Shown here: one piece after another, positions 1,499 to 53,593 of the stretch
Layout of the letters: every line of letters starts with the position of its first letter
Position numbering within the stretch: position 1 is the first letter of the stretch
NCBI GenBank assembly: GCA_008632985.1
Contig: QPGO01000209.1
Coordinates: 62,001 to 123,326, forward strand
Direction: 5' to 3'
DNA: 61,326 nt
Source: Psammoneis japonica
Taxonomy: Eukaryota
Translations under genes and position numbers: made by a program
Notes under the pieces: model-generated
The model's database searches: none
What the model was told of the DNA's origin: nothing
The model's input: only the letters and a program-made list of their open reading frames with translations

Positions 1499-1688
1499 CT
1501 CCGTTGTTGCACAATTTAATTGCGCACTGTTGAGCTTTCTGCCACAAAAGGCGACAGGTTTGTTGTCTTGGGATGTGACTGCTCCCAATTGACATTTAGA
1601 GGCATCGGTGTGCACCTCAAAGGATTCATTAAAATCAGGATGTGATGATAAAACATCATCTGACATTGCCCGTTTAACGGTTTTGAAT

Positions 1689-5016: not shown

Positions 5017-5910
5017 GTGTGCACCAGGCGCTGAAAAAGAAGATGTGTTGCGACTTTGTCGTTGTGAAAATTGCGAGCTAGTTTAGAGTAGAGAAAGTGG
5101 GATCATGCGAATGGGGAATCTTGCCAAATCCCCATTCGTTCGCATTTGGATCGCATCAAATCGATCGTGCGTTCGCATTGTGGATCGTGTGAATCAAGCC
5201 ATCACGCACCATGCACGAGTGATGTCATCGTGTGGAATCACGCTGCCATCGTGGGCCAGACGACGGGCCAGTGTGCTTCACACGGATGCTCTCTTGGCAT
5301 CCTTCTGGAATTGCCCAAGACCTAGAGCCACGCCCTCCTGTGGTTGTGCTTCCCAGGTGCGCGTTAACAATGCTGCTTTGCCGCGTACAAGAGGCTCATG
5401 CATGGTCTCGCCGTGTTGTCCAGCAGCAAGGCATGCTGCAATCTCATCCCTTTCATTGAAGACAAACACTTGACCATCATTTTTTGTTTCAAAAACGTGG
5501 CTTCTGGTGTGTGTGACATTCATGGAGCTTTCCTGGGCTCTTCCAAATGACAGCAGTTCTTTGCTGTCTCCAGTGGCGGCAACGGCACAGCTGGAGTGCC
5601 TGGAACTTGAGAGTTGTTTGGAAGATGCTCTCCAGTCTTCAAATCATGCTCTGCATCAGCATGGCATCCTGGAGATTTGAGGAACTCTTGTTTGTTGTTG
5701 CCATGTTGGACATTTTTCTCCAAGGGATGATGGCGAATTGTTGCATGACTGAAAAGAGTGGAGGGACAGACAGACCAACTGATTTTTTGCCGACAACAAG
5801 GAAAATGCATCATGACCGAAACAAGGCACTTTGGCACCATCTACAATGAAATGAACTCCAAAAATGCAGTGTGATTGACACAAAAGAATGAAACAAAAAC
5901 ATGTTTCTAA

Positions 5911-5975
5911 GACCCGTCGCAGTCGTGATGAAGGGGTGCAATTCGGGGTGCAATTTTGGGGTGCAAAAACGCGCG
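5911..5975. mobile_element. Single terminus of the PIF/Harbinger-like family seen at 30017, TpA-mutated
   Basis: taa|gacccgtcgcagtcgtg..ggggtgcaattcggggtgcaattttggggtgcaaaaacgcg matches 30017-30080 with gtgtaa>gtgcaa three times; the other end was not found. Confidence 0.75.
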
Positions 5976-7544: not shown

Positions 7545-10203
7545 GTTGCCTGTTGACACGGACCGAGGGATCATGCACCGGGAAACGCTGAGGCAACAAC
7601 ATTCTGCATCATTTGACGGCGGCGCCGCAACAAAAATGACGAAGCATAAGTCATACGAAACATTTATCGAGAAATGGTTAAATGGTTCGAGACACTTTCT
7701 GGATGTAGGACATGAGATGTTTGTGTGAAAACGCATGGGGAGAAAACAAAACATTACTCTGGCGATGCGGATAGAGCCGCAAAAAACTTTACAACCGGAA
7801 GAGCAACGATACCGATTTCAAAAGAATGCGTTTCAAAGCCTCCGTTTTGACCTCTCTTGCCACGGTTGTGTGGGCACAAGGTAAGCTGATGACACTTTGC
7901 TCTGCGTGTCTGTCTCTTCCGAGATGGAGAGACGTTCTGGTTCATTTTGCGGCTGACTTCTGATCATGCGAAGCCCTTTATCAATCATCTTGCTAATGTC
8001 AAATCACTGCCGCCTCATCATCAGGCACAACCAAGGACAAGGATCATGTCTATCCACGCTTCACGGTAAGTCCAAAAAATGAGCAAGGGTTGTTGTGTGG
8101 CCAGCTTGACATCACAGCTCACGCTTTTGATCTTCTGCCGAAGCCCCTTGCAGGTGAAGCTTTGCAGAATGAGAAGCCGTCTACAAGCGATGAGAAGCCC
8201 ACTGAGCGAAAGCTCAGCAGGCCTTCTCGCCCAGTAGAGTTCCCTTATGGCAACCCTTGTGTCAATCTTCGGCGAGATTCTGATCCTCACGATGGCTACA
8301 ACAGTGACGGATGGAAGCTCGTCAACTTTTGTAGTGCGGGTGCCACTGGTCGCTATCCAGCGCAGAGACCAGACTGTCACCACAATGATGACGATTCTGC
8401 CTACCACACGCTCAAGTTTCCCTTTACATTTTATGGAAGGGACTTTAGATATGTCTACATCAACAACAATGGCAATCTGTCATTTGACCGTCATAACAGC
8501 AAACCGAGCTTTACAGTGAATGACACACCCATTATTGCTCCGTTATGGTCTGATGTGTACACGGGAGAAGTCCCTTATTATGGGTGTTCGGGCTGTGGTC
8601 ATGTGTGGATGAAAGAAATGTCAGACAACATGTTAGCAGTAACGTGGGAAAACGTCGCCGATGGCTACCATCCAAACGATGATCGATTGAACTCCTTCCA
8701 GGTGTTGATGTCAGACGGTTCGGACCCTTCGATGGGCTTGGGCAACAACATGTGAGTCTCCAAAATGGTGCGTGTCTCAACTGTTTATATTGTCAATGGT
8801 TTTTGCTGACATGAAACTTTTGATTTCTTTTTCAACATAGCTGCTTCTGCTATGCAGACATGAATTGGTCGATAGGAGGTAAAACTGTGGGAGTTTACAA
8901 GGGAGACGGCAGAACGTCCTTTCAGGTTACAACCCCTCCGTTTCCAACCGTGTTCTTAAGTTCTCTCGAAGGCAAAGGCTTCTGTTTCGATGCTGCTGCG
9001 GAAGAGAACATCCCTCCCATTCCCTTTAACTTTCCATCAGATGATAGGATTGACCTCAAGGGATGTGCCTCGATTGATACAGAGTTTAGCTTTCTCAGTC
9101 CTGAGGTTGGTCAGTGGACCACGGTTGAGGTTTATGATGCTCCTACTGATGTAATGACTGTTACAGTACAGAATGGGAACACTGCTACTGTTCGTCTCCA
9201 AATAACTCCCACCGTGAATGCAGACTGGACGTTGAACTTTTTTGTCAGAGACAGCAAGGGAGCTGTTACAGAAAAGGCTCTCAAGGTTACTGCGTCTGGC
9301 TGCCATGATCCACATGGACCAATAATGCGCTGCTCGGACCGACATTTGCGAGCTTCTAACAATCGGTGCCATGCTTGGACCACGATTGATAATGGGTCCA
9401 GATCCCGCAACGGTGCGGCAGCTCGATTGACACTATGGCCGCTTCCGCCTTACCCATTGGGTGTCACCAAGGTGACTCTATGGGCCGCCGATCAATTTAG
9501 AGATGGTAAGACAAACTCTTGCACAAGGACTGTGACGGTCGATCCACCTCGATATGGTCACTGTCCAATAACTCCAGTCATGTACTGCAAGGACGTGAAT
9601 AGAAAAGCCCGTTTCTACCCACTGTGCGACTATTGGGCGACCGTTGATGATGGTTCTCATGACCCCAGAGGTGGTAATTTGACTCTTGTCCAAAACCCTC
9701 CGCCTCCCTACGGCATTGGATACACAAGAGTGACACTCAAGGGAACGGATAGAAACGGTGTATCCACGACATGCACGGCATCTGTGAACGTTCGAACCTC
9801 TGGTGGCCGTTGCAACATATAGCCGTGGTACGATGTGCGATTAGAGGAAGAACTAGGATTCTGCATATATATTTTTCGGTCCTGAACTGGAATGGCATCT
9901 GCCAAGACAAAGTTTCAATTCGATAGCCAGTGTCGGACCGATACATGTTTGGATATATACGTCGGAAGGGCAGTGAGGTTGATGACGTTGCATGTGGATA
10001 CACATTTTAATCGATTTATTGTGCATCACTTGGACGTAATCGGGGTGTTTTTGCACACCTTACGCGGTGAACCAAGGATGATGACACTCTATAACATCAT
10101 GGCGAGGTTGCAAGCTTGCTTGATCCTTAGTTTTAGAATAATTTATTAGGCAAACCTCGTGAGCAATTCACCAAGTAGCATGGTTCAGCGGTCGTCCATG
10201 CAG
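7545..10203. repeat. Segmental duplication unit containing the NIDO gene; inverted copies at ~27425-29950 and ~51150-53860
   Basis: Upstream sequence, introns and ~380 bp of 3' flank align by eye between copies; copies B and C also share the adjacent SDR pseudogene. Confidence 0.9.
7826..9822 (+). CDS. Secreted nidogen-like (NIDO) domain protein with two C-terminal HYR/Ig-like repeats, paralog A; join(7826..7880,8025..8065,8105..8751,8841..9822), 574 aa
   Basis: Signal peptide MRFKASVLTSLATVVWAQ; three GT-AG introns at the same positions in all three paralogs with frame preserved; NIDO motifs NDDDS..L.FPFTFYG..YINNNGNLSF, IAPLWSDV, VTW..V, NSFQV; repeats ending PPYP.G.T.VTL...D..G...SCT..VTV. 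Confidence 0.88.
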
Positions 10204-17163: not shown

Positions 17164-19346
17164 ATGAAAGTTTGTAAGCAAAACTGGTTTTGCGGCTGGA
17201 TCCTTGCGGTTGCAGTCCTCCCTCGAGCCTGTGATATGGTTGAGGTTCTTGCTGAGACGGGGACATGGAACGATGAGGTAAGTTCCTATAAACACGTCTT
17301 TATCGACCGCATGTTCAATGTACAAGGAACAAAAAGTTTTGGCGTTTAAGCTGATCTTGTCCCGGCTTCTGTAATCTCGTAGGCTACGCCGCAAGAAGAA
17401 ATTGATTCCAATTCACGGCGGCTTCAACCTGCATCAGATGGGGTCCAGGGAGGCGCCGCATTTGGACCAGATGATACCAACGAACCCCAGAAAAGGCTGC
17501 TCGCTACTGGGCACTTCCATCTACGAGCAAGCGGTTCTAATCCAAGGAGCCTTCAACCTGTGTCAGACCGGGTACAAGGAGGCGCGTTTGGAGCAAATGT
17601 AACCAGCGATCCCGAGAAAAAGCCGCTTTTTACTGTAAGTTTTCACCCACGAGCATTGTACAGCAGTCACGTTCAATTCATTATCGACTTACCGGTTGTC
17701 GCTTTGACTGCCAGCATGTAGTTCCGTACGAAGAAGCAGACGCCAAGGAGGAACAGGACCCTTCAATCGTAGCACGACGTACTGCTCCGGAAATTTATCC
17801 TCAGTCCGGGACGCAGTTGCCTAACCTGGTTTGGAGCCCACCCTACAGAGTGAAAATTCATGTGGAAGGAACCTACGCGTATCTCGGCTTGGATCAATCC
17901 AATAAAGTGTTGATCTACGACGTTTTGGATCCGAGAGCGCCCGAATATGTTCAGTCAGTTGACACGTGCTTTGGGCGCGACATTCGTGATCTGTGGGTTT
18001 CTGGCAATCACTTGTGGGCAGCACACCGTTCCGGTGGACTCACAATGATTGACATCTCGGATCCCAGAAAGCCCGTGATCCCACCAAAATGCTTTCCTGA
18101 AACATACTGCCACAAGTGTCTGATCTCGGAGGGAAATTACCTCTTTTACGCTGGACATCACCTCTCAATCTATGAGATAACGGGTGATTCTCTGCGTCTG
18201 ACTTCACGTAGCGCTCGCATTCCCGGGGGCGGTCGGGAGGTGGTTGTTAACGGAAACTATGCATACGTGGTCAGCGACAATGCTGTTAATGCTCCCGTCA
18301 ACATATACGATGTATCAAACAAGAGGACAGCGCCTTCTCTGGTCAGATCTTTCAGACCACCTGCAGGAAAATTTCCCCCATATCAAATGATTGTCTCCCG
18401 TGATCGAAAGAGACTTTATGCAACAGCAAGAAATGCCAGTGGTTTTGGCGAAGGATTCTATATCTTCGACATTGACGGTGCAAAGGCCGTCAATCCTCAA
18501 CTCCTTGGCAGTGTCACGAACCACCCGCGTGCGTTTCATATTGCACTTGATGACGATAACAGTTATCTCTACGTCAAGGAACACTGGGGGGTGGCATCTT
18601 TCTCCGTCTACGACGTGAAAAATGCCACCTCGCCGAGAGTGAGGGATCGCGTACACCCGAACCCCTACAAGCCAGTTGTCTCCCACAAGGGGTTCCAAGA
18701 TGGCGGCTTGTGGTACTCAAACGAACATTTATACACTGTCGAGGGAAATTATCTAATCATTTACAATGCTCACATCCGTTACCGCTTCTGGTGCAAAGGA
18801 CATTTCTTGAATCTTGATCGCGTTACCAAGAAGCCACGGAAAGGGTCTTGTTATGCGTACGACACGCTGTACCAGGATGTGTGCCCGCCAGTCAACACGA
18901 GGGTTGCCAACCCTCAATATTCTCTTCCTGGTGGCAACAGCCCCGACTGTCCTTTGCTTTGCTGCGGAAGTGGGGGCGCGGGTGGGACTTGTCCCTTCTC
19001 GCCGGACAATAGCTGGCGGAAGCCGTTCCCAACAGTGATCGTTCCGGCATGCGACGGCAAGGAAATTCCTGATGAATGTGAGGTTGTGTTAAAGACGAAT
19101 GAAGCTGGCCAGCCTTACAAGACATGTTCTGTTCGGGAAGGCAACTGGATCTTTCCATCTATCTCGTGTTGGACTGGCAACGACTTGACGAGTGAGGTTC
19201 TCCTGGGACGGAATACAAGGGTTACTTTGTGCCGCCATGCTGGCGAATGCGCGTATGGCGGTGAAATTTACTCGCGAGGGAGACTCTCTCCCCCCATGTC
19301 CATTCGATTCCCTGGTCTCTCTGAGCTACGCGTTCAATGTCTATAA
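17164..19346 (+). CDS. Secreted LVIVD-repeat (beta-propeller) protein with Cys-rich C-terminus; join(17164..17277,17383..17634,17715..19346), 665 aa
   Basis: Hydrophobic N-terminus; two phase-0 GT-AG introns join cleanly onto ORF 17817-19346; repeats VEGTYAYL..VLIYDVLDPRAP, VSGNHLWAA..LTMIDISDPRKP, VNGNYAYV..IYDVSN, FYIFDIDG..NPQLLG, VYDVKNATSP. Confidence 0.85.
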
Positions 19347-20059
19347 TGCCGGTACGTAATGCGACTTTATCGGTTTCGGGGGGGCAACAACCGTTTCCTC
19401 CCTAACATATTTTTCGGATCCAATGAAAATATAAATCTAAAATCGCTCAAGAACATTATGTTTTTATGTGCGCAACAAGTCTCCTATTAGTCCGTCTCTT
19501 CAATAACTGTGTCTATGAGCTGTCATGTGCATTGTTGTTGTCTCTTGCCACTCTAGCTAGAGAGCAGCTCCTTATGGAGTCGAACAGATGTTGTTTCTTC
19601 TCTTGAGGATGGATCATCGGGATGAGGACGGACAGTTGCGGACCCACACTTCCACCCCGCGTGAAAGATCTGCGTGAAAGTTGCGCCATCGTTTGGTCTT
19701 GGTGCCATCACAAATGAATGCTGCTGCTGTGACAGCTGAGAATTGGACAACAGACAAACAAAGTGTTGAACAGCATCAACAGGCTATGGAATTGTGTGTC
19801 AGGCATGCTGCTGGGGCCACTGTGTCAGCAACAGTGGACCAATTGCTGACAGCAGACAATTGCTCACCTTTGTGACAGTGTGTCAGCATTCACTCAGTCC
19901 CTTCCAACTGACACCAGCTCTGCTCGGGTCACCAGATCAACAGACAAATGCAACCTGATGCCACCCTGTTCAAGAACAATTTCTAATTTGGGGATGGAAA
20001 AAGCCACATCCAGGCAGCAAACCCATTTGGTGTGTCCCCCATTGGGGCTCTCCATGAGA

Positions 20060-22800
20060 TGTGACCAATGATCTCCCAGAGCTTTGGTCCAGGTGACAAC
20101 TTGGTCAGCACATCTGCCAGATTCATGTGCCTGTTTTCCCAAACAATGTGTGCAATTCCTGCAGCTTGCACTTTGTGGGTCTTGTGATGTGGGGCTGCAT
20201 TGTTCTTCTTTTTAAAACAGACTCCACTCCAGTTGAGTTCTTGAGGACAGCTTCATTGTCACAAAAGACATCAGTGGGCCCATCCAGGGAGATTCCCAGC
20301 ATCCAAAGCATGCAGCAACAAAAGGCCAATCTGCTCCACCGCAGTTTTCATCACCACCAACTCCAACCCAAAAGCACACGACTGTGCATCATTCTGCCAT
20401 TCAGAGCAGCACAAGATGGGTGCTTGCTGGATGAACATCAGGACCCCAGTGTGGAGCCTGCACATCACATGGCATCTGGTGTGATCAGCATTGACAAAGC
20501 AAAGAATTCAGATCTGTGACAGAAAAAGCAATCCTTGTGCTGCAGTGTGATGCCACACTGGAGTGCATCAACTCGGATCAGTCTGAAACCTTGCTTTCTG
20601 TACAACCTGTGGGTCTCAAGCTGTGGTTGTCATCCCAGGCACAGGCCATCTGGTCTCAGTCATTGTGTGGCCATTGTCAGCCTTTGCAGCATGAGCACCA
20701 CCACTTTGATGATCAACTGTCTCTCTCACAATCTGGCGCGCATTGCCTTCAGAACCAATCTGTGCAAAATGATTCTCTGCAATTGTGTTGGCAATGCAGC
20801 AACCCATGGATCCATCTGGAAACTCCACATCATGTGTCCCAGAGCCTGGGGCTGTGTTGTCATTCCTTGTGCAATGACTCTGGCATGAGTCAGCAGCTTG
20901 CCTCCTTGCAGTGACATGACCTGAGCAGCAAGGCACTCATCCAGCCCCTTGGGGCACACTTGTCAGCTTCCTTGCAAGCAGAGTCTGGTTCCACAGGCTC
21001 CAGGTTGTCATCCCAACTGCTGTCCATTTGGTCATCAGGAGCATTGGGAAAGTCAACCTTTGTGTTCCCACTGTGGTCACCCAGTTTTTTTGTCAAAGCC
21101 TGATCAACAGAGACCAAGTCAGCTTCAACAGCCAGAGTCTTGAGGTCATCATCCAGCATTGCCTGTGCATCCTCCCAAGTGGCAGGCCTGCCAGATTTAA
21201 GCAGCATGACAAATGCCATTTCATCCATGCAATTGTTGGCAACTCTGAGCCAACAACTGATGCACTTCCTCTCATGTGGGAACTCATCCACAGGCATGCA
21301 TTGGTGCACAGGTTGGCACCAATCAAAGAGGGAGAGAGATGAGACATCAGGTGTGGAGCCTGAGATCTCCTCCAAGTTGTTCATCAAAGTGGAGTTGGGC
21401 TTACAAGCTGATGTGCAATGGAGCAATGAGCATCTTTTGGGAATTGTCTGGACAAATGTGCAGTGCCAGCAGGTGCAGAGACATTCAACCCCACGCCATT
21501 TGGTGCTGGCAAAACTGTTTGTTCCTCCTTGGAGGGTTTCTCATTGGTGCCATGTCCAAATTGCTTGTCTGCATCAGCAGCAGGCTTTTCACCTGCAACT
21601 CATCAGAGTTTTTGGGTGCATCATCTGCCTTGGGATCAGCGATGGCTGTTTTCTTAACAGAGTGGGCCTCCTGCTCCTTTTCTTCTTCTGAAGAAATGGA
21701 GCTGGCTTTGCGCCAGCATTTGGCCTTGCACCAATGCATCATGAAGCTTGTTGACCTCTTTTTGGCCTTCTTTGCCCAAGGCTTTCCATTCATCAGCAGG
21801 ACAATGGCCAACCCTGATCCTGGGCTTGACCTTCTTTGCACCATGTTTGCCACCCTGCTTTGTGCATTGGCTCTGTTCTTCCACTGACCAACACAGGGCA
21901 ATGGTGTGGGTGTTGGTGCTGTGGTTTTTGGCAATGTCTGCCAGACTTTTGATGTGCTGTTTGCAAAGCTTGAAATCCACGACCTTGTTGGGATCTCCAT
22001 TCAGCACAATGACACTCTTTCCAGTCTCCAATCTTGGGTCAGAGATGCCCTTCAGGAAGTCAGAGACCTTCTTGGTCTTGGCTGTCTGCTTGCTCACAAG
22101 CCTTCTGATGGTGCTGGATGCACTGGCCAACAGTGAAGCAACCCCATCTGGAGGCTTTGCAGCAGCAATCTGTGCACGCATGTGCTTCTTGTGGGTTGTG
22201 ACAGCAGCCAACCCATCTGTCTGCCTCTTCAAGGCAAAGAATGCACTGCAACCATCATTTTTGTGGTTCAAGGGCTTGACAAATGCCCACCCAGGCCCAC
22301 CCATCACAAGTTTCTTGAGCACATCATAGAGCCAGCATTTGCTGACCCACAAATGCTGAGCCCTGGCCAGTTGGGCTGCGGCATTGAGGTCTTTGTTGAT
22401 GATGGCACAGCCTGCACTCAACATTTCCACAGTTGCTGCCTCATGCTCTGTGCTCCCTGGCAAGGTGGGTTGGTGCCCCACACCCCACAATGGGGCACTG
22501 TGATGATGGCGCAGCTTGGTCTCAAGCAGCTCTTGAAAGGCAGGCCAATCACAAAGGTGCTTGCCTCAACAGCAGTGCTTGTGTCATCATCATCCTCATC
22601 TGCCAACTTGAGTTGTTTGGTTTGATGAGGCATGGCTGCCATCCACTTGGTGATGACATCCCCAGTAAAAGTGGCAGGTGCAGGGCTTGATTTCAAGCCT
22701 TCTTGTGGTCCACCCTTGCACACAAAGCCTTTTTTCAGTTTGCAAGATGTAGAAACTGCACCTGAGGGTTGACAGCCAGATCTGCTGCCTTTGTCACACC
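20060..22800 (-). mobile_element. Old Ty1/Copia (CoDi-type) remnant with internal deletions
   Basis: Gag-like GGPGWAFVK..DG..AF.ALK and FLKGISDPRLETGK; DVEFPDGS..ANTIAEN.FAQ; RNase H GPTDVFCDNEAV.KN and NLADVLTK. Confidence 0.8.
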
Positions 22801-27807: not shown

Positions 27808-29825
27808 TTATGTATTGCAACGGCCACCAGAGGTTCGAACGTTCACAGATGCCGTGCATGTTGCGGATACACCCTTTCTATCCGTTCCCCTGAGCGTCAC
27901 TCTTGTGTATCCAATGCCGTAGGGAGGCGGAGGGTTTTGGACAAGAGTCAAATTACCACCTCTGGGGTCATGAGAACCATCATCAACCGTCGCCCAATAG
28001 TTGCACAGTGGGTAGAAACGGGCTTTTCTATTCACGTCCTTGCAGTACATGACTGGAGTTACTTGACAGTGGCCATATCGAGGTGGATCGACCGTCACAG
28101 TCCTTGTGCAAGAGTTTGTTTTACCATCTCTAAATTGATCGGCGGCCCATAGAGTCACCTTGGTGACACCCACTGGGTAAGGCGGAAGCGGCCATAGCGT
28201 CAAGCGTGCTGCCGCACCGTTGCGGGATCTGGACCCATTATCAATCGTGGTCCAAGCATGGCACCGATTGTTAGAAGCTCGCAAATGTCGGTCCGAGCAG
28301 CGCATTATTGGTCCATGTGGATCATGGCAGCCAGACGCAGTAACCTTGAGAGCCTTTTCGGTAACAGCTCCCTTGCTGTCCCTGACAAAAAAGTTCAATG
28401 TCCAGTCTGCATTCACGGTGGGAGTTATTTGGAGACGAACAGTAGCAGCATTCCCATTCTGTACTGTAACAGTCATTATATCAGTAGGAGCATCATAAAC
28501 CTCAACCGTGGTCCACTGACCAACCTCAGGACTGAGAAAGCTAAACTCTGTATCAATCGAGGCACATCCCTTGAGGTCAATCCTATCATCTGATGGAAAG
28601 TTGACGGGAATGGGAGGGATATTCTCTTCCGCTGCAGCATCGAAACAGAAGCCTTTGCCATTCAGATAGTTTATGTCTAAAGCTTCAGTGACATTATATT
28701 GTCCGTCCTGGTTGAATCGGCCAAGCTGAAAGGATGAATTACCATCTCCCTTGTTCACTCCCACCGTACTAGCACGATATCCTGTTTTCGGAATATCTAC
28801 TGTCGACCACTCCATGTCTGCATAACAAAAGCAGCTTTGTGGAAAAAGAAAACGAAAGCTTTTTATGTAGCCAAAAACCGCAGGCAACGAAAACAGCTGA
28901 AGGACGCACAAATTTCGAAGACTCACATGTTGTTGCCCAAACCCATGGCAGGGTTTGAACCGTCCGAGATCAGCACCTGAAAAGAATTTAAGCGATCGCC
29001 CATAGCTTCGTGGTTGTCGTGGTATCCAACTTCTTCCCACGTTACTGCTAATGTGTTGTCTGACGTCTCCTTCATCCACACGTGACCAAGATAAAAGCGC
29101 ACAAAGAACCAGTATCCTGTGTCCACATTGTCCCAGAATGGAGCAATCATGGGTGTGCCGCGCCTTGGAAAGCCTGGGATGCGGCTAAAAGAGAAACTGT
29201 AATTACTGTCAAATGACAGATAGCCATTGTTATAGATGTAGACTCGTTTTGTGTCCCTGCCATAAAATGTAAAGGGAAACTGGAGCGTGTGGACAGCGGC
29301 ATCATTGTCATTGTGGTGACAGTCTATAGGCCGCGCCGGACTGCCGCCTGTGGGACCCTTACAAAAATCGACAAGCTTCCATCCGTCGCTGTTGTAGTCA
29401 TCGTGAGGATCATAATCTCGCCGAAGATTGACGCAAGGGTCACCGTAAGGGAATTCGACCGGGCGAGAAGGCCTCGTGAGCTTTCGTTCAGTGGGCTTCT
29501 CATCTTTTGCAGACGACTTCTCATACAGCAGATCAAGACCGTGATCAGTTATGTCGAGCTAGCTACAAGACAATTCTTGCCCAATTGGACTTACCGTGAA
29601 GCGCAGGTGGACGTGATCCTTGTCCTTGACTGTGCCTAAAGATCGTACGGCAGTAATTTGACATTAGCAAGATAATTGATAAAGGGCTTTGCATGATCAG
29701 AAGGCAGCCACAAAATGAATCAGATCGTCTCTCTGTCTCGCACACGCAGAGCAAAATGTCGTCAGCTTACCTTGTGCCCACACAACCGTGGCAAGATAGG
29801 CCAAAACGGAGGCTTTGAAACGCAT
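27808..29825 (-). CDS. NIDO/HYR-like secreted protein, paralog B; complement(join(27808..28834,28927..29558,29595..29635,29771..29825)), 584 aa
   Basis: Same exon structure as paralog A; open frame across all junctions. Confidence 0.88.
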
Positions 29826-30016
29826 TATTTTTGAAATCGGCAGTTGCTCTTCTTGTTGTCAATGTTTTTTGTGGCTCTATCGTCAAGCAGCAATGTTTTG
29901 TTTCCTCTTGCGTTTTCCCGACATACTTATGCTTTGTTTTCTGTTGCGGCGCCGCGTGAAATTCCTCCTATCGTGTCACAATCACGCCCAACAGAATTGC
30001 GAACTCCAATGATTTA

Positions 30017-30797
30017 GACCCGTCGTACTCGTGGAAATTGGGGTGTAATTCGGGGTGTAATTTGGGGGTGTAAAAACGCGCATCGCGCGAATTTACACCC
30101 CAAAATTACACCCATTTTTCGACGAGTACGAGAGTGTGAAACTTGGCATCTGTAATTCTGCGAGCAATGATATATACGTTGAATATATACTCCTGAAAAA
30201 ATGTTGATACCCAATCAGGAATAATACCATATATCCATTTTTAATCAACTTATCTGTACGCGAGGTTGAACATGCTATTGACTGCATCAAACCACCATGG
30301 CGTTCGGCGGCTCCGCTGCGACCTTACACATATCAAAACACTGTTCTGACAAGCCTAATCAATGTATAATAACGTGATTAATATTATGTGTTACTGCTGT
30401 ATCCATATCTAAGGTATCAGCAACCATATGACGTGTTTTTCTTCTGAAAAGGTATGGAGTTGCCATCATTTTGTTCTCCGTTGACTTCAATCTCATCGTT
30501 TTTCGCCGTTCTTTCTCTCATAAACACATCATAATAGCTCCCCAGCAACGATTTTTCACATCTCTTATTGACTGACGTTCGTTGTTGATTGTTGGTTGCC
30601 ATTGTTGTTCGACAATTCTGATGTTGTCTGCCGTCATGGACGATGATGAGTCTGTTTTCGTACGAAAAATTACAGGCTCGCAGAATTTTTTACAGGGAAA
30701 AAATACATGCCTCTGGCGGCCTATTTGTTGGCTGTAATTTTTTACACCCCAAAATTACACCCCGAATTACACCCCTCCGCCACGAGTACGACGGGTC
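30017..30797. mobile_element. 781-bp PIF/Harbinger-like MITE, TTA TSD, unmutated
   Basis: TIR gacccgtcgtactcgtgg plus subterminal ggggtgtaa x3; tta at 30014-30016 and 30798-30800; the paralogous site near 53985 is empty. Confidence 0.9.
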
Positions 30798-30883
30798 TTA
30801 GGGTGACGACTGCTGTACTCTCTAGCTAGGGCCCTAGACTGTGACTTGACACTTCCACTTTGTTTGGAGATTTCCTCTTTCAA

Positions 30884-31417
30884 GGCATGCGCACAACGAG
30901 CGCACAGCAGCGCAATGTCGGACAGACGACAGTCGTGCATTTGTTGTTGCGATTTGAGCGACAAATTGCCGTCGACTCCGACGATGACATTTTTCTCAAG
31001 CTCTGACAGGACGACTTTGCAATGGGCACTTGTCATGATGATCGACTGCACTGTTCAAAACACGAACGTGTGGACAAAGCTTCGCTCGCGAAGCCTCGGC
31101 AGTTCAACAATGAACGCACAACAGCGACAGGTCGGAAAACAGAGCTCGGCATTGGTGTGATGTTTTGCTTTTGAATGGAGGATGCTCTGGGGGACTTTCA
31201 TGACTGAGTGCATTCTCAAACTTGACAAACTGAGTGTCTGCAATGACAAAAGACTTTTGCACATCGCTGTCATTGCGCTGTCGCCATGACAACGCACCAC
31301 TGTTGTGTCACCGATTTTTGGCAATGATGCACTCACCAGCATGCACAAAGTTTCCAGTGCAAAAACGTTCAGAAAGTCCAATCATCTTGCCATCCATCAG
31401 CTTGTTGTGTGATTGCC
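30884..31417. mobile_element. 534-bp TTAA-target element, inverted homologue of 2975-3508
   Basis: Termini ggcatgcgcacaacga ... ttgttgtgtgattgcc; flanks tcaa (30880-30883) and ttga (31418-31421). Confidence 0.85.
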
Positions 31418-33477: not shown

Positions 33478-33660
33478 AAAAGCGAATAAACACTGATGCA
33501 GCCGCATGGGGTGATGACAGTGCCTTGAGCCTAAGAGCAGCAGTGACAAACCAAAGAGAATCCTGCTCCGATTGGATCGTGTGAGATTGTGGGAAAGAAC
33601 AAACCACCAGATCGTGTGCGTCAGCCCCGGACCAGGGACTGACCACTCCACCCAGATTCA
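33478..33660 (-). repeat. Copia 3' LTR
   Basis: Ungapped match to 39924-40106; starts TGAATCTGGG on the minus strand. Confidence 0.9.
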
Positions 33661-36600
33661 CTCGGTCCCCGCGAAACGGCAGTGACAACGCCGATTCGTC
33701 TAAACCCAGAACATCCTCTCATAGAGAGGCAAACACAAAACCCAAATTCAGACCACCAGCAATGCTGGCTTGGGAGGCCGAAACACGTGGGCGCGAGCCG
33801 CAGGTGTCTGGCCTTGGTGTCAGGACGCTGCCAAAAGACACAAGAGCAAAGTTTCCAACGCCGCTCTCCCGTCGTCACCTTCGTAAAAAAATCCGCCAAA
33901 TTCGTGTCCGTGTCCTCCTTCCCGACGCGAATGATGCCAGCCGCAACCGCTTCACGAACCACATGACAGTTGATGGCATTGTGCTTCTTGTGCAACACAG
34001 ATTCCAGAACACTGACATTCTTCACCACGCCGCGGTTGTCGCAAAACACATTGGCAGGGCCTTCAATCGGTGCTCCAAACATGCGAAGCTTGTAACGCAA
34101 AGCAACAATCAACTCCTTGCAAATGCGCATCGCAACCAATTCGCTGCCAAACGTCGCCGACTCCACTGTGTTCTGCCGCTTGCTAGACCAAGTGATCGGA
34201 GCATTGTTCACGAATGTCAAAATCCCGCCATGCGATCTGCGAGCAACAACGTTTCCCGCATGGTTAGCGTCAACAAATGCAGACACATTTACCGGGTTGC
34301 CACGGGGCTTGGGCATCCGTGGCGGCAACTCCTCCTCAACGTCCCCGTAAAACTCCGTCCAGTCCGCAGTGGAATTGAAAACAGATTCGTCAATCACAGG
34401 CATCTTCGGGTCAAAACCAATGCGACCGACATTCAAATGCTTCTTCACACACGCGAACACATGGTGCAATGCTTCGAGGTGCCCTTTCCTTGGGTTGGCT
34501 TGATGCTGAGAGAGAATGGAAACTTCATGCAAGACATCAACATGGCCCAACTCGATCGCCCAACGACAAATGCCAATCAACTGCAAATGCCTGTCTGCCA
34601 AATCAGGTCCCAACTCGTCCGTTACGTCTAATTCCGGCTTGCACTTGGAAGGCAGTGGGTCCCTCACATTGTTCTTCAAGACTGCTCCGTCACCGTCCTC
34701 TTCCAATGGCCCTTCCACCGTCTTGATCGCCGACTTGATGTGCGACTTCGGTGAGCTTGCCCAAATGGTGCGCCCATCCTCGGTCTGAACCTTCTCAACG
34801 TCGGCTCCAAGGCATGACGATGGCTCTCCTTCACTCCCAGGTTTGACAGTGGATGATTCACCCATGCTCTCGACAACAGATTTTCCTTGATGAGAAATGA
34901 TTAGAATGTCGTCAACATAAACCAAAAGCATTTCACAATGCTCATGCCCATCGTCGCGAGTCGCCGCACGAACACAAACGTCGGGATCCGCCTTTGTTGA
35001 TTCAAAACCCATGTTCCGTAAAACCGATGCCAATGCGGACCTCCAAGAGCATCCAGAGCTCTTCAAACCGTGCAGCGCTCGAGCCACAATTAGAACCTTG
35101 CCTTGGTGCTCTCCACATTCCCTGCCACCTTTGAACCAGATCTTCTCTGCACACGGGGCATTCAAATGCGCGTTCTCCAGGTCGACAGCCGTGATGTCCA
35201 CTCCATTCAATGCTGCCAGCAGGAATCCTAACCGCACGCTGTCCCTCGAAACAACACTTGAGCATGTGATCGATGACGGTGTTTCCGCAGCATGACCTCC
35301 TGCAACAAATCTGGCCTTCCCAGTGAAATCCATCTTGACGTCGAACACCAAATGACACCTGATCTCCTGACAACCACGCAAAGTTGCACTCTTGCCTTCC
35401 CGGACGACTTGAGGGGTTTCAGCTTCATGTTCGCGCCACGCTGCCTTGACCTTGTTCATCTCCTTGTCAATTGCGCGAGCCCAATGGTCCGTCCCCGTTT
35501 CCTGGTCAATCTTCAAAGCATCTTCTGTAGACTTGGGCAAACGCGTGCCGAACTTGTGGGCAGTGCGCCAATGTTTCTTCTTAACCTTTGAGATGATGCG
35601 ATTCCGCTCACGTAAAACATGCGTGACCCACCAAGCAAACACCGGTTCTTCAGCCAACCTGTTCGCAACAGCATGCTCAGCAACTTCAATTGGGTTAGAC
35701 TCCTTCAGATCCTTGAGTTTCACCCACGACGAGCTGCCGTCCTTCCATGCGACCAACAGGTTCCATCCTTTCGCAGTTGTCTTCTTATGTTCCTTCCCGT
35801 CAGCTGTCTGAACTGTTCCTTCCTGGATCGGCACAGCTTCGCCGGTCTTTTCGTGATCCTGCATCTCCTGCAAAATAGAACACTGGTTGCCTTTGCTGTC
35901 AACTTGAGCAAACATGTTCTCCGCGATCACATTGGCAGCATGCTTGTCTCTGGTGCCGTCTGTGTGTTCAATCTCGTGTTCGCGGGTGTCAAACAATGGA
36001 CTCTGATGCCGGGTTCCAATCGGTCGCCCATCCTGACCTCGTGCCCGCTTGACTGCGACTCCTCGCCGTTCAGCGTTAGTCCCAACATCAAACATAAGTT
36101 CCATTCCAAGACATTGATCAATTGCCTGTTCGTTGTCGTCCTCGGGTCGTTTTCCTGGCAATGACATGTCCCCGCATTCCTCATCGGTTGGTGTCACACC
36201 GCCTTCACATTCCACACTGGGGTTGCCGTCGATCGCCAAATCATCCAGTGCAAATGCTGGCACCGCTTCGTCGCCTTGTAAAACGAAATTGGTGTCATCT
36301 AACCGTGCCTCCAGTTGTTCGTTAAACTTGTCGACTTTCACACGAATGTCCGGCTGCACCATGTCGGCCTGCGTTACATGCTCGACCGAAGTCTTCGAAA
36401 CTGTCTTCCCGGATTCCGTGATGATCCAATGACACATGTCCGATCCGACCTTGTGAGATGTGCCAAGCCATCGTCCAAGCCTCCTCGGGTCATCTGTTGC
36501 ATTCGGCTTGTCGTGTCTGTCCCACCACCAGACCAGATCACAGAAACCGAAGTCCAAACATTCGCCCATTTCGGGTGTCTGACCAGTTACCTCTTCACAC

Positions 36601-38150
36601 CCAGTCCGTTTGTCACGGCCTCTTGCCATGCGAGATGCAAGTTCCGATTCACAAACTAGACCAAAATCCCACAATCGTTTCGGCACCTTCTTCCTCGTCA
36701 TCCGCAGGCGCCAACGCTTGGCCAAGAACCCGATCTCTCTTTCTGCTGCGTGATTCTGATTCTTGCAACCTTGTTCCATTGTCCTGAGTTGGATCCTCAT
36801 TCGACGTGCGTGTTTCACAAACTCGGCACTTCGTCCTGTGAACTCTCCAGCACCATCCGATGTGAGACATTCCGGCACTCCCACATCGTCTGTAAAGTCA
36901 ATGAGAGACAAACCTGCCTCCGACCTTGCGGTCATTGGCACAACCTTTACGAACTTGCCCTGAGCACAAACATTGGCACAAGTGTTGCCGAGCAAAGATT
37001 TCACCTTGGATGTTAATGTGTCCACAAACCATGTCCCTTTTAATCTTTTTCGATGCAGGTCCAAGTGATCCACCCTAACTCTCCTTGACATTGGTTGGGC
37101 CGCCGTCCGCACACCGCATTGTGCAGTTACATTGAGAGTGTCCTTAGCCGTTTCCAAGCCGACGTTCCACTTTCGTGCTAGCTCTTCAGCGTCGATCTTG
37201 GAGTGACGGTCCTCACTGCGCAACTCCTCAACAGATCTTGCTCTTTCGTCTGTGTCTGACCCACACGCGCAAGCTGCGTTGACCAAACTGATGAGCCTGT
37301 CACAAAAGGATTTAAGATGATAGACTGGAGACAATCGAGTGAGTTCAGCTTCAACCTCGCCCCATTGGACTGCTTGAGACTTGGCCCTGTCGCTCTTCAT
37401 TTCTGAAATCTGTTCCTGTCTCATGCCAGATGTCATCAAACGGATGGCACGGATCTCAGATTGCTCCCTTGTGCGCTGTGGTAAACCCATGTCGACTTCT
37501 GTTGGATTCCACACGTCTCCTTTCAGCAGCATCACTGGCAAGTTCTTCTCCTCCCAATCCGTCGGAACACGAGACTTGAAAGATGCAATTGTCCCCGTGG
37601 AATTGAAAGGTATGAAAGCTTCATCAGCTTCGATCCCAAACCCATTTCGAGTGTCGCAAGGGTTGTCGTGTACGGGCACATCACACGCTTGCAACTGATT
37701 GGGGTTCAACAATGAATGCTGCATGTCAGTTCCAAACCACAACATTTGGTCTCCAACCAGTGAGCACTCACGAGTCGTTTCCGGATCCGTCCATGCTGTG
37801 CAACAACGCGCCACAGGAATCTGTTTAACCGGCTCATGCGAATCTAGAAACGGGTGCACTTCACAGACTTCGTTCGTCAATTCCATGAGTTTCCAGTTGG
37901 CGCCAGCACAACAAGTGTCCGCATGAGTGTCACATTCGTTCCTCGCCATGAAGCCGGGTGTCGTTAAGTTCGTCATCGCGGTGGCAGTCGTTGACCTTGT
38001 CACACATTTCGAAGTCACAGCAACGCGCCTTTTTGTTACCTTCTCTTGCAAATGAAACATTGGGTGGGGTTTGGTTAACAACATGATGAGCAACATGAAT
38101 GCAAATGACATGTGCACCAAGTGTGCCAACGCTCCCGTAGTTGAAACCAC
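33621..38150 (-). pseudogene. Copia pol, uninterrupted 1509-aa ORF with pervasive missense change; ancestral stop probably at 33828-33830
   Basis: PR DTHADTCCAG; IN WFVDTL..SDGAGEF..NHAAEREI; RT KARFVAGG, DLENAHL, ALHGLKSSG, YVDD; RH FVDANHAG, ESATFGSE, CDN, NLADFFTK; only 4 Tyr. Confidence 0.92.
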
Positions 38151-38159
38151 CCCGATCAG

Positions 38160-39480
38160 TCAAGCATGACCTTGGTGGGCTCCTCGACCGAAAGCACGCC
38201 CATTTCTGCCACCACGATCACGGTCAGCTCCGCGACCGCAGCCACCGCCTTCACCTTGCGCTTGACCTTGCTGCTCTTGACCTTGACGGTCTTGAACCTG
38301 AGCTTTGGCTACTTGCCCATTGCCTCCGGCGCGTCCGCCTCTTCCTGCAGGGTTTCCTTGGCCACCGCGTCCGCGCATCCTTTCACGAGCCTGAAAAACA
38401 TAATTGAGACCTCCGTTAAAGCGCAACCTGTCCCATTCCTGGTCGGCAAATGTCCTCGCAGGATCCGATGCGTCGACTCCGTCAATCACAGTTGTGCGAT
38501 CACCGCCCCTTCCTTGATGTCCTCCGCATCCTCCACCGCAGCCAAATCCACCACCACGCCCACGACCGCCGTGATGGAAACCTCGGCCACCGCCGCCACC
38601 TCGGCTGACCTGAGAAATCTTGCGCTTCGCACAATGCCGGGCTTCCAACTGAGCACCTGCATGCAAACAAGAGACTTCGGATGAGAAACAAGCACACGCC
38701 CCCGCGAAGTCACGAGGGCACTGGTTGCCAATGACGGCCGCAGCCGCCACAAGACGGGCATCCTCCGATTTGATGCCCTTCTGCAACATTTCAACCTTCT
38801 GCCGAGCAGACATGCTTTCATCTGGAACCTCGTCCAAAGCAGCAAAGGCACTGGTGAGTTTCTCCGTGAATTTCTCAAACGCAAGTGCACCTTCCTTTTT
38901 GTAGAATGACGTTTCGATGTTGGCCTCAGCCAAATGAACTCGCTTGCTCAATTCGCCTTCGCCGTTGCAATGGTTGACCCAGGCCCAGAATGCTTCGCGT
39001 CCATTCTCTGTTGCGTCACATGAAACAAGTTCAAGAAATCGTCTTCACACACGTCAAAATCTTCCGCTTTGAATTTGGTGAGGCTGTCAACCATCGCAGT
39101 GGATTCCGTAAACTCCTTTTCAACACGCCTGCCGTCCCCAGCCGCCGCCATAGCTGCAATGTCAAAATTCGCCATGACCAGTGGCTGGTTCCGTTTCGTT
39201 AAATCTCTCAACCACCAAACCAACGCCTGCAAGTTCTTAATCTGCATCGTCCCCAGCGTCACGCGTCCATTGGCTGCTGTACGACGAGCCGCCCTTTGGG
39301 CTAGATCCTCAACATCGTGGTCTGTTTCCACAACAGCAACATTCTCAAGAGCAGCAAACCCTTCACAGAAAACAAGCCTCGCCCCAGCGTTCTGGTCAAC
39401 AACACCACAAACCTGCAATGCCGCGTCTGCATCAGCCACCGCGGCCAAAGCCGCAAGTGCCGCTGCTGGTGCCGCTGCCA
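38160..39480 (-). pseudogene. Copia gag, frameshifted or internally deleted near 38950-39020
   Basis: RTAANGRVTLG..IKNLQALVWW; FYKKEGALAFEKF; Gly/Arg-rich tail and NGVD-like DGVDASDP.RTF..EW. Confidence 0.85.
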
Positions 39481-39923
39481 TCCTGTGACAAGAGAAATGG
39501 AGGCAACAACCCATGCAATGGGTCGCAATTTGGTGTGAGTGCGCATGGCACAGGAGGCTTCACCGACCGGTGCTGTGACGACGGGTTCACGCAGCCAACC
39601 GACTTCGGGGTGATCAATTCCGTGTCGTTTCCATTGTGAGCACACGCTCGGGCATGCTGCCCAATGCCGCAGTCGCTCCACACCCGTTAACAACATGGAG
39701 ATGGTGACCATTTTGCGAGTGTTTTCCGTTGCAAGCTGTTTCCTTTGGTCGTCATACGCGACACAGAACACACGCTGCACGCGACAACCCCCTTTCGACG
39801 CTGCACGTACAAATCAGTACATTTTCTACAGCTGCTCGTTCCATGCACACAATCACAACAATCAACCGTTTACAACGAGTTGTTTCCTTGTCCGTTTCGT
39901 TCAGCTTTTCATCAATGGCTCTG

Positions 39924-40106
39924 AAAAGCGAACAAATGCCGATGCAGCCGCGTGGGGCAATGACAGCACCTTGAGCCTGAGAGCAGCAGTGATGGGCCAA
40001 AGAGAATCCCATTCCAATTAGATCGTGTGAGATTGTGGGAAAGAACAAACCACCAGATCGTGTGCGTCAGCCCTGGACCAGGGACTGACCGCTCCACCCA
40101 GATTCA
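39924..40106 (-). repeat. Copia 5' LTR
   Basis: Ungapped match to 33478-33660. Confidence 0.9.
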
Positions 40107-40399
40107 CTTGAAAGTTCTGCATTTTAATCCTCATGATGGATGTCAATCATTCCGCCAACTTTCACCTTTTTCTGCTTCCCCTCCAAAGCCCCTCCTTGCC
40201 AGAAAATCACAATGTTTCATTTGCACCATTCACCTGAGCAATCGTGTGTGGGGCATTTGTCCCTTCCACTTGTGATCTTTGGACCCAATCCCCATGTTTT
40301 TGGTGGGTCAGTGCAGAGCTGCAAAAGTGGTGTGACCAGCAGCCGCAGGATTCTGCGTCTGCTGTTCACACTGTGATTGCCCATGGTGGTTTGCCTCTC

Positions 40400-51536: not shown

Positions 51537-53593
51537 TTATATATTGCAACGGCCACCAGAGGTTCGAACGTTCACAGATGCCGTGCATGTTGCGGATACA
51601 CCGTTTCTATCCGTTCCCCTGAGCGTCACTCTTGTGTATCCAATGCCGTAGGGAGGAGGAGGGTTTTGGACAAGAGTCAAATTACCACCTCTGGGGTCAT
51701 GAGAACCATCATCAACCGTCGCCCAATAGTCGCACAGTGGGTAGAAACGGGCTTTTCTATTCACGTCCTTGCAGTACATGACTGGAGTTACTGGACAGTG
51801 GCCATATCGAGGTGGATCGACCGTCACAGTCCTTGTGCAAGAGTTTGTTTTACCATCTTTAAATTGATCGGCGGCCCATAGAGTCACCTTGGTGACACCC
51901 ACTGGGTAAGGCGGAAGCGGCCATAGCGTCAAGCGTGCTGCCGCACCGTTGCGGGATCTGGACCCATTATCAATCGTAGTCCAAGCATGGCACCGATTGT
52001 TAGAAGCTCGCAACTGTCGGTCCGAGCAGCGCATTATTGGTCCATATGGATCATGACAGCCAGACGCAGTAACCTTGAGAGCCTTTTCGGTAACAGCTCC
52101 CTTGCTGTCTCTGACAAAAAAGTTCAATGTCCAGTCTGCATTCACGGTGGGAGTTATTTGGAGACGAACAGTAGCAGTGTTTCCATTCTGTACTGTAACA
52201 GTCATTATATCAGTAGGAGCATCATAAACCTCAACCGTGGTCCACTGACCAACCTCAGGACTGAGAAAGCTAAACTCTGTATCTATCGAGGCACATCCCT
52301 TGAGGTCAATCCTATCATCTGATGGAAAGTTGAAGGGAATGGGAGGGATGTTCGTTTGAGCAGCAGCATCGAAACAGAAGCCTTTGCCATCGAGATAGTT
52401 TACGTCTGGAGGACCAGTGACATATTGTCCTTCCTGGTTGAATCGACCAAGCTGAAAGGATGTTCTACCATCTCCCTTGTTCACTCCCACTGTAGCAGCA
52501 ACTCCTCTAAGACCTTTGTCACCCGACGACGCATCTCCTGTCGTCCACTCCATGTCTGCGTAACAGAAGCAGCTATGTGGAAAAAGAAATCGAAAGCTTC
52601 ATGTGAGCAAAAAACACAGGCAAATTATTTAAAAAAAAAAAACAACTGAGACACGTTCAATTTCGAAGACTCACATGTTGTTGCCCAAGCCCATTGCAGG
52701 GTCTGAACCATCCGAGATCAGTACCTGGAAAGAATTCAAGCGATCATCATTTTTGTTGTAGTATCCAACTTCTTCCCACGTTACTGCTAATTTGTTGTCC
52801 GATATCTCCTTCATCCACACATGACCAAGATATTTTTCCGAAACAGCCCGGCCCGTATCCGTGTCCGCCCAGAACGGAGCAATCATGGGGTAACCGTTCA
52901 CTGGAAAGCCTGTGGAAGTGTATTCGCTATAATGACGGTCAATTGACAGATTGCCATTGTTGTTGATGTAGACTCGTCTAATGTCCCTTCCATAAAATGT
53001 AAAGGGAAACTCGAGCTTGTAGGCGGCAGAATCGTCATCATTGTGGTGACAGTCTGGTGCCTGAGCTGGACGATTGCCAGTGTCAGTCGTACTACAAAAG
53101 TTGACGAGCTTCCATCCGTCGCTGTTGTAGTCATCGTGAGGATCAGAATCTCGCCGAAGATTGACACAAGGGTTGCCATGAGGAAACTCTACTGGACGAG
53201 AAGGCCTCGTGAGCTTTCGTTCAGTGGGCTTCTCATCGCTTGTAGGCGGCTTCTCATTCTGCAAAGCTTCACCTGTAAGGGGCTTTGGCAGCGGATCAAA
53301 ATCGTGAGCTGTTATGTCGAGCTAGCCACACGACAACCCTTTTGCTCATTTGGACTTACCGTGAAGCGTAGATGCATATGATCCTTGTCCTTGGCTGTGC
53401 CTAATGATGATGCGGCAGTGATTCGACATTAGCAAGACAATTGACAGAGGGCTTCGCATGATCAGAACTCAGCCACAAAATGAACTAGATCGTATCTCGG
53501 AAGAGACAGACACGCAGAGCAAATTGACATCGGCTTACCTTGTGCCCACACAACCGTGGCAAGATAGGTCAAAATGGAGGCTTTGAAACGCAT
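51537..53593 (-). CDS. NIDO/HYR-like secreted protein, paralog C; complement(join(51537..52572,52675..53321,53360..53400,53539..53593)), 592 aa
   Basis: Same exon structure, frame preserved; most canonical NIDO motifs (IAPFWADTDT, WTTGDASSG..ATVGVNKGDG). Confidence 0.9.

Follow-up and report, generated by a model that had tools for sequence, protein, structure and literature searches.

The window, i.e., the whole stretch of DNA analysed here, comprises 61,326 nucleotides of contig QPGO01000209.1 of Psammoneis japonica (assembly GCA_008632985.1, positions 62,001 to 123,326). Its minus strand carries, at approximately 33478-40108, a degenerate Ty1/copia long terminal repeat (LTR) retrotransposon of a type known from diatoms, whose features are collected in Table 1. 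The pol gene of this element appears in the list of open reading frames (ORFs) as one single frame that runs from stop to stop (33621..38159), i.e., 1512 codons plus the TGA at 33621-33623, and its product is extremely poor in tyrosine. We consider it very probable that the element was hit after its insertion by a strand-symmetric process that changes TpA to TpG or CpA, and that this process has left the frame open and the protein likely inactive. A first-pass annotation, made from the letters of the sequence, had described an open Pol of 1509 amino acids (aa); that frame is real, and the start proposed for it (38150) lies three codons inside the 1512-codon frame.

Pol aligns collinearly and over its full length with 17 relatives of 1357-1924 aa, and the positions of protease, integrase, reverse transcriptase (RT), and RNase H follow from this alignment. 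No Pfam integrase domain was matched in the window Pol, and only one relative (P0024) gave a sub-threshold match to rve_3. From 8000 candidates scored, at least 1912 database proteins are related to Pol at E <= 0.001, the best of them with 70% identity. Among the 120 relatives listed, two carry the name of an organism, in both cases the diatom Fragilaria crotonensis (57-60% identical). The two LTRs are direct repeats with 88.6% identity over 185 bases; on inspection of the element borders, neither a target-site duplication nor exact LTR ends were recognisable. The gag region is split near 39015, where the tblastn frames -3 and -2 join at 39014/39017 and approximately 68 query residues are absent.

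The element resembles the CoDi Ty1/copia elements of diatoms in its copia-type RT (RVT_2), the position of gag 5' of pol, its short LTRs, and the diatom origin of its named relatives; the CoDi label itself comes from the first-pass annotation and is a putative one. According to the passage on putatively active CoDi elements in Maumus et al. (2009; PMC2806351), these have LTRs more than 95% identical, unlike the LTRs of the window, and at most one stop or frameshift at the gag-pol boundary. The in-frame TGA found at this boundary may be native to the lineage, since an intact relative, locus L007, likewise has its gag and pol in one frame with stops between them, and the CoDi passage describes the same tolerance (PMC2806351).

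Only four Tyr are found among the 1512 residues of Pol (0.26%; residues 280, 1081, 1271, and 1356), exactly the number that had been counted in the first pass, whereas the 17 full-length relatives contain 2.86-3.39%. Assuming 3% Tyr, the probability of finding four or fewer is 2e-15. Pol is at the same time rich in Cys (3.24% vs 0.79-1.50% in the 17 relatives) and His (3.64% vs 1.93-3.02%). No Pol as poor in Tyr was found among the 150 database relatives examined, the lowest value being 1.71%. We have defined 29 Tyr-conserved columns, i.e., those where at least 60% of the 17 relatives have Tyr. At these columns the window has His 13 times, Cys 11 times, Tyr three times, and Met and Ser once each. 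All the codons at these His are CAT or CAC and all those at these Cys are TGT or TGC, and thus 24 of the 29 columns carry the CAY or TGY codons that the proposed removal of Tyr by TA>TG/CA predicts. The four individual replacements that had been read from the sequence, i.e., ALYGL to ALHGL, AYLNA to AHLNA, KYW to KHW, and INYH to INCH, all match the alignment with the relatives (Table 1).

The stop codon of the family has also been lost. The 11 closest full-length proteins fetched all end at the same W or C, and in the nearest metagenome loci extending as far as the C-terminus, six in number (L001-L005 and L011), the stop (three TGA and three TAA) stands at this point with no extra codons; more distant metagenome loci extend 2-22 codons past it, and one extends 68. 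In the window, the codon directly after V-F-W is CAG, a single TA>CA step away from TAG, and we infer that the ancestral stop was TAG. As the first-pass annotation had suspected, the frame reads on from this codon into the 3' LTR.

Why such a frame stays open was analysed by an exhaustive enumeration of all codons with their flanks under TA>TG/CA, under CpG decay, and under the repeat-induced point mutation (RIP) of fungi. The TA>TG/CA change makes no stop from any sense codon and removes stops by TAA>CAA, TAG>CAG, and TAG>TGG, while TAA>TGA remains a stop. The enumeration agrees with the previous claim that this change cannot create an in-frame stop but erases TAA and TAG. The only stop that CpG decay can make arises by CGA>TGA, and RIP makes three kinds (CAA>TAA, CAG>TAG, and TGG>TAG) and removes none. 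Simulations, with 1000 runs per model, were also run on the pol of locus L007, which is intact and has 1431 codons. After a loss of 74% of TA, a stop appeared in 0 of the 1000 runs, while Tyr fell from 46 to 12 and both Cys (18 to 35) and His (32 to 49) rose, shifts that are similar to those found in the window Pol. When the same 149 substitutions were placed at random (transitions to transversions 2:1), the frame was open in 3 of 1000 runs, with a mean of 5.3 stops; it was open in 25 of 1000 with 149 random transitions only, and in 6 of 1000 with CpG decay of equal depth. With the TA model, none of 1000 runs on a second relative, L010, produced a stop either.

The sequence of events that we propose is as follows. 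After insertion, a local process would rewrite TpA to TpG or CpA, i.e., by A:T to G:C transitions, on either strand. Tyr codons (TAY) would then become Cys (TGY) or His (CAY), the sole fates of TAA and TAG would be loss or conversion to TGA, and new stops would not arise. Because no stop can be created, the Pol frame would have stayed open over its 1512 codons and, its original stop being gone, continued into the LTR. Pol would meanwhile collect replacements at family-invariant positions, being killed by missense, and the frame would close later, once the slower CpG decay turns some of the 14 CGA codons that pol retains into TGA. Of this sequence, the mutation spectrum, its date after insertion, its action on both strands, its restriction to transposon DNA, and the fact that it makes no stops are shown by the data, whereas the inactivity of Pol, TAG as the former stop, and the chemistry are deduced.

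Table 1. Coordinates of the retrotransposon, of its diagnostic codons, and of other features of the window.
Feature	Position	Strand	Basis or remark
5' LTR	39924..40108	-	BLAST pair; bounds approximate
3' LTR	33478..33662	-	BLAST pair; extended Pol frame ends 42 nt within
Open Pol frame, 1512 codons, 4 Tyr	33624..38159	-	Protease, integrase, RT, RNase H by alignment to relatives
Copia-type RT, Pfam RVT_2, residues 937-1094	34878..35351	-	56.5 bits, E 4.2e-15; cut-off 31.6
ALYGL Tyr to His (CAC), residue 1030	35070..35072	-	Tyr in 17/17 relatives
AYLNA Tyr to His (CAT), residue 998	35166..35168	-	Tyr in 16/17 relatives
KYW Tyr to His (CAT), residue 863	35571..35573	-	Tyr in 17/17 relatives
INYH Tyr to Cys (TGT), residue 1398	33966..33968	-	Tyr in 16/17 relatives
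Surviving Tyr (TAT) of YVDD, residue 1081	34917..34919	-	Alignment to relatives
CAG codon where the family stop sits	33828..33830	-	Directly after V-F-W
Read-on extension, 69 codons	33624..33830	-	CAG to TGA 33621-33623; last 42 nt within 3' LTR
In-frame TGA, gag/pol boundary	38160..38162	-	Sequence
gag C-terminal part, pol frame	38163..39044	-	tblastn of four gag-pol relatives; 2 Tyr in 294 residues
gag N-terminal part, other frame	38951..39559	-	tblastn; 0 Tyr in 203 residues
Spurious 348-codon frame antisense to pol	33585..34628	+	Opened by TAA/TAG loss
Second element (RVT_1)	1-6000		Pfam RVT_1 (non-copia RT)
Long open frames of the RVT_1 element	2115-3215; 3874-5082	-	Tyr 0.25-0.54%
Copia pol fragment	20043-20870	-	32-40% identical to window Pol
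HYR-domain host-like ORF	8824-9819	+	Paralog set
HYR-domain host-like ORF	27811-29184	-	Paralog set
HYR-domain host-like ORF	51540-52598	-	Paralog set
Host-like ORF, 601 codons, LVIVD repeat	17541-19343	+	Tyr 5.8%
Inverted repeats, 61 bases	30016-30076; 30739-30798		Third copy at 5907-5974
Inverted match, 459 bases	30883-31330 vs 3061-3509		75.8% identity

TA depletion in the window and its flank rule

The observed to expected ratio (O/E) of TA is 0.24 in the entire window and 0.18 in the Pol frame, where 48 TA are observed vs 261 expected from base composition, so the background of TA loss assumed in the first pass holds. In all the 56 related loci compared this ratio is 0.61-0.89 (median 0.70). 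The TG and CA dinucleotides that the change yields are in excess, with O/E of 1.38-1.44 in the Pol frame and of 1.4-1.6 when frame and window are taken together, while CG stands at 0.94 in the frame. Of the 62 one-kb tiles of the window, 43 have a TA O/E below 0.25 with TG/CA at 1.37-2.09 (depleted tiles), and the 15 tiles with host-like genes have a TA O/E of at least 0.45 (normal tiles). The Pol element and a block at 1-6 kb are the depleted tiles that keep CpG (O/E 0.7-1.1). In the surrounding repeats, which are older, little is left of either TA (0-0.09) or CG (0.06-0.3), and therefore the loss of TA precedes CpG decay.

The block at 1-6 kb contains a second element with a non-copia RT that is at the same stage as the Pol element (TA O/E 0.14-0.16; CG O/E 0.89-0.96). 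Another fragment of a copia pol is present in the window (TA O/E 0.03; CG O/E 0.08), and it is a late stage at which both dinucleotides are gone.

The process is restricted to transposon DNA. The host-like ORFs of the window have a TA O/E of 0.60-0.67. When the comparison of Tyr with Cys plus His suggested by the first-pass annotation was run within the window, these ORFs had 3.0-5.8% Tyr vs 0-0.78% in nine long ORFs within depleted tiles. Three of the host-like ORFs encode HYR-domain paralogs that share 93.5-97.0% DNA identity over 845-1060 bases, with a TA O/E of 0.62-0.67 and 3.0-3.4% Tyr. Among their 104 pairwise differences, 45 are transversions and 11 are of TA type. These paralogs are a young gene family that lies between hypermutated transposon blocks and has been spared by the mutator. 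Duplication alone, thus, does not attract it.

The TA sites that remain follow a flank rule, which is based on 266 NTAN sites in depleted tiles vs 590 in normal tiles. Relative to normal tiles, retention is 0 for ATAT, 0.02 for ATAC, 0.06 for ATAG, 0.08 for ATAA, 0.10 for GTAC, 0.13 for CTAC, 0.15 for CTAG, 0.23 for GTAA, 0.42 for CTAA, and 0.93 for TTAA. In particular, there are no ATAT sites in the 43 depleted tiles vs 54 in the 15 normal ones. The ranking is nearly unchanged when the 56 related loci are used as reference. These ten values fit independent strand rates set by the base 3' of the A, of approximately 2.5 for T, 1.15 for C, 0.95 for G, and 0.04 for A. Since a 3' T or C favours the mutation, Tyr codons (TAY) are the hardest hit, and only four TA are left at codon positions 1-2 of pol vs 42-53 in the relatives. 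TAA survives better than TAG (30% vs 16% of the normal density) because a 3' A protects it. The flank model also accounts for three of the four surviving Tyr codons, which follow a T. Among the 24 converted and four surviving Tyr codons, His stands after G in 10 of 13 cases, although these numbers are too small for a test of the flank.

As for the chemistry, our guess, to which we commit, is an enzymatic deamination of adenine in the DNA of silenced repeats, which requires a 5' T and prefers T over C and G (about equal), and these far over A, on the 3' side. A different source, which we hold to be possible but rather unlikely, is a thymine modified within TpA in silent chromatin, e.g., to 5-hydroxymethyluracil or a derivative, that mispairs with G, or else a bias of repair; the coding effects would be equal. 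Dinoflagellate DNA carries 5-hydroxymethyluracil, preferentially at TpA. The symmetric footprint (His 13 : Cys 11) cannot tell T from A as the damaged base, and the loss of TA coincides with CpG decay in the deepest islands, pointing to the state of chromatin as a shared factor. However, none of these observations is positive evidence for a modified thymine, and the role of the base that follows the A is most simply explained by an enzyme recognising T-A-N on a single strand. An ADAT2-like adenine deaminase is likewise favoured, from prediction only, in the preprint on Bigelowiella (Mettrop et al., 10.64898/2026.01.13.699255).

Some other features of the window may be mentioned here. Two inverted repeats of 61 bases, 90% alike and approximately 660 bases apart, resemble the termini of a small terminal-inverted-repeat element; a third copy exists, and TA is normal in their tile (O/E 0.74). 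A 459-base inverted match lies at the border where the TA O/E falls from 0.74 to 0.03. The host-like ORF of 601 codons has only LVIVD-repeat proteins as relatives, 20-35% identical, of which the named ones are bacterial or archaeal, and it may be a gene of bacterial origin.

Timing, strands, and state of the element

The pair of LTRs dates the changes. There are 22 differences in 187 aligned columns with no gaps, and all 22 are transitions. They group into 17 events, i.e., three TA vs TG/CA, five TG vs CA doubles, six CG vs TG/CA, and three others, with 13 letters in TA-type events. Each TG vs CA double implies two independent hits on opposite strands of one ancestral TA. The process has thus acted after insertion and on both strands. 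Since the LTR differences are mostly hypermutation at TA or CG and are all transitions, ages calculated with a normal clock would be too old.

It is very improbable, in our opinion, that the element was already altered when it integrated, whether through ADAR-like RNA editing or through deamination of its cDNA as in APOBEC-hit retroviruses. Retroelements do pass through RNA and single-stranded DNA, and ADAR prefers a 5' U, as stated in the Bigelowiella preprint (10.64898/2026.01.13.699255). However, two LTRs copied from one template would not differ at 22 of 187 columns, with five TG vs CA doubles, and the flanking DNA outside the element is even more depleted than the element itself (TA O/E 0.03-0.09 at 32-33 kb and 42-47 kb). 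That both strands were hit alike, taken with the divergence of the LTRs, also speaks against a change made in the RNA prior to insertion. ADAR-type hyperediting fixed by retrotransposition, which would leave A>G on the transcribed strand alone and the same letters in the two LTRs, is contradicted by the ratio of His to Cys and by the 22 columns at which the LTRs differ.

Other copies of the family were found in a public sequencing run (X1), where 1180 contigs match the element at 85-100% identity, 208 of them at 99% or more. Transitions account for 343 of the 394 places that differ between the window and these contigs, and 28 of the 40 best-supported differences are TA or CG vs TG/CA. At the Tyr codon of ALYGL, the window has CAC (His) and one X1 contig has TGC (Cys). 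Other family copies have therefore been hit independently. The contigs of a second run (X2) match one of 30 bins of the element, and no RNA run was found among the public sequencing runs that share words with it.

These data also bear on a possible artefact, i.e., that modified bases in repeats were miscalled and TA was read as TG or CA in the assembly. The X1 run, the one public run that contains the element, includes only 36% of its sampled 31-letter words, so that the exact sequence is confirmed independently for part of its length. However, the X1 contigs that are not at least 99% alike differ by the same type of change, and miscalls would not yield TG vs CA patterns that differ between the LTRs and between copies. 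We consequently give this explanation very little credit.

To judge the state of Pol, we have defined 470 near-invariant columns, i.e., those at least 90% identical in at least 15 of the 17 relatives. The window Pol is changed at 49 of them: 31 of the changes are a single TA>TG/CA step, 8 a single CG>TG/CA step, and 10 are of another kind. The TA-type changes include Tyr to His nine times, Tyr to Cys eight times, and Thr to Ala six times. Because of these 49 replacements at positions invariant in the family, Pol is probably inactive as a protein, through missense changes and in the absence of nonsense ones. Its RVT_2 match nevertheless reaches 56.5 bits, within the 55.6-63.8 of three intact relatives. 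The expectation that such a dead element would be annotated as intact stands for pol, which is open and has a normal domain score, but not for the element, with its gag frameshift and its LTRs; an LTR identity of 88.6% would flag it as old under the LTR-identity criterion. That the Tyr-poor Pol belongs to a functional, recently active lineage, or reflects a codon or amino-acid preference of the host, is scarcely credible: the 1512 open codons, the YVDD Tyr, and the Pfam score would fit it, but the near-invariant changes, the frameshifted gag, the diverged LTRs, and the normal Tyr content of the host-like ORFs do not, and no look-alike stretch was found among the indexed DNA stretches compared.

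Several points weigh against our reading. There is a frameshift in gag near 39014-39017, so the element is damaged as a whole, pol alone is open, and missense has not been its sole killer. The catalytic Tyr of YVDD is retained, and changes outside the TA and CG types account for 3 of the 22 differences between the LTRs and for 10 of the 49 near-invariant changes. The ancestral letters are deduced from relatives at most 70% identical and from the LTR pair, and the full simulation with random-substitution controls was run on one relative, L007.

Spurious open frames and candidate cases elsewhere

The erasure of TAA and TAG is also visible outside pol. In the six frames, there are 27.5 stops per 1000 codon positions in depleted tiles vs 38.5 in normal tiles; TAA plus TAG fall from 18.3 in normal to 4.4 in depleted tiles, and TGA makes up 84% of the stops in the latter (23.1 of 27.5 per 1000 codon positions). 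ORFs of at least 100 codons number 160 in the 43 kb of depleted tiles vs 34 in the 15 kb of normal tiles. These ORFs have Tyr, Cys, and His contents of 0.21, 5.35, and 4.52% in depleted tiles vs 2.76, 4.11, and 2.83% in normal tiles.

As a matched control, the five non-coding frames of the pol span were compared between the window and four intact relatives. These frames contain 34 stops per 1000 codon positions and 12 ORFs of at least 100 codons in the window, vs 46-53 stops and 2-7 such ORFs in the relatives. A simulated loss of 74% of TA raised this number from 2, 4, and 6 to 7.5, 11, and 13, respectively, in three relatives. The best example of a spurious frame, with 348 codons, runs antisense to pol (Table 1); the longest ORF in the non-coding frames of the four intact relatives has 131-205 codons. 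The excess of Cys- and His-rich spurious ORFs that had been noticed in all six frames is thus real but moderate, i.e., approximately two-fold for ORFs of at least 100 codons in non-coding frames.

The public proteins P0030, P0074, and P0076 are full-length predicted Pol of 1385-1405 aa from ENA assemblies, and they have Cys or His at 8, 6, and 9, respectively, of the 29 Tyr-conserved columns, compared with 0 in P0003 and 2 each in P0051 and P0053. Judging from these residues, the former three probably stem from copies in other organisms which the process has hit in part and which were nevertheless called as whole genes; partly hit copies of Pol are, in that case, already entered as whole proteins in public data.

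Known hypermutation systems and significance

The closest known process was described in Bigelowiella natans, where A>G/T>C hypermutation at TpA only affects two integrated viral regions, with de novo mutation measured (Mettrop et al., 10.64898/2026.01.13.699255). According to the main text of this preprint, the hypermutation is limited to foreign DNA, the genome being otherwise at baseline, and the ADAT2-like candidate comes from prediction. In the same text, reverse-transcriptase and DDE domains and a zinc-finger motif are reported as enriched among the TpA-depleted coding sequences (CDS), many of which are unannotated. Both processes change A:T to G:C at TpA, giving TpG or CpA, and both hit foreign or mobile DNA while host genes stay at baseline; in the window, CpG-type changes are mixed in. 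The two cases differ in the host, a chlorarachniophyte there, whereas here the only named relatives are from a diatom. They also differ in the target and its depth, i.e., a TA O/E of 0.45 in the region of a nucleocytoplasmic large DNA virus (NCLDV), as given there, vs 0.18 in our LTR retrotransposon, where the loss is close to saturation, with neighbouring tiles down to 0. Furthermore, de novo rates were measured there, whereas here only the footprint in the sequence is available. The terms 'stop codon', 'tyrosine', 'trinucleotide', 'context', and 'diatom' do not occur in the main text of the preprint, which hence states neither a stop-free outcome nor a rule for the 3' flank. A literature search, which covered the top-ranked matches and is not a proof of absence, found no other paper on TpA-directed hypermutation and none on diatoms, and the terms 'dinucleotide', 'hypermutation', and 'RIP' do not occur in two papers on diatom transposons.

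RIP, which changes C:G to T:A at CpA in Neurospora and other ascomycetes (Discussion of 10.64898/2026.01.13.699255; abstract of PMC2621366), likewise ruins copies of transposons through local transitions at a single dinucleotide. However, it works in the opposite direction (CpA>TpA, with an excess of TpA), whereas the TA O/E found here is 0.18-0.24, and it is triggered by duplication, whereas the HYR paralogs, 93.5-97.0% alike, are unaffected. RIP makes three kinds of stops and removes none; the TpA process makes none and removes three. The coding effect is thus the mirror image of RIP, since it kills without truncation.

A-to-I editing by ADAR prefers a 5' U and removes the stop at the amber/W site of hepatitis delta virus. 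Like the process in the window, it changes A to G with a preference for a 5' U or T and creates no stops, and UAG>UGG can extend a frame. In contrast, it acts on RNA, on one strand, and is not inherited, whereas the changes described here affect chromosomal DNA on both strands and after integration. CpG decay, i.e., the deamination of 5-methylcytosine, also yields TG and CA, and it contributes 6 of the 17 LTR events and 8 of the 49 near-invariant changes. It is not the main cause, given the CG O/E of 0.94 in the frame, and it alone of the two can close a frame, via CGA>TGA.

The new part of this work is the stop-free coding consequence. It follows from a process that a single preprint has described, found here in another host and acting on another target. 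A signature described in that preprint for a rhizarian alga is herewith extended to transposons of a probably stramenopile genome. Where such a mutator acts, a transposon gene cannot be taken to be alive because its frame is open and its domain score passes, and the Tyr content or the TA O/E would be a cheap filter for annotation. The contribution of the process to spurious and new genes could be counted given the whole genome and expression data.

A much bolder idea, which at present we regard as a long shot, is that diatoms possess an adenine mutator that is dedicated to the DNA of transposons and directed by chromatin. It would be stop-free by its very spectrum, disarm elements through missense, and leave a stock of Cys- and His-rich frames until CpG decay closes them. 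If true, it may explain the unannotated CDS and the enrichment of a zinc-finger motif among the TpA-depleted CDS of B. natans. It would also provide a stock of long translatable frames on both strands that inflates the counts of genes and of 'intact' transposable elements and seeds new genes.

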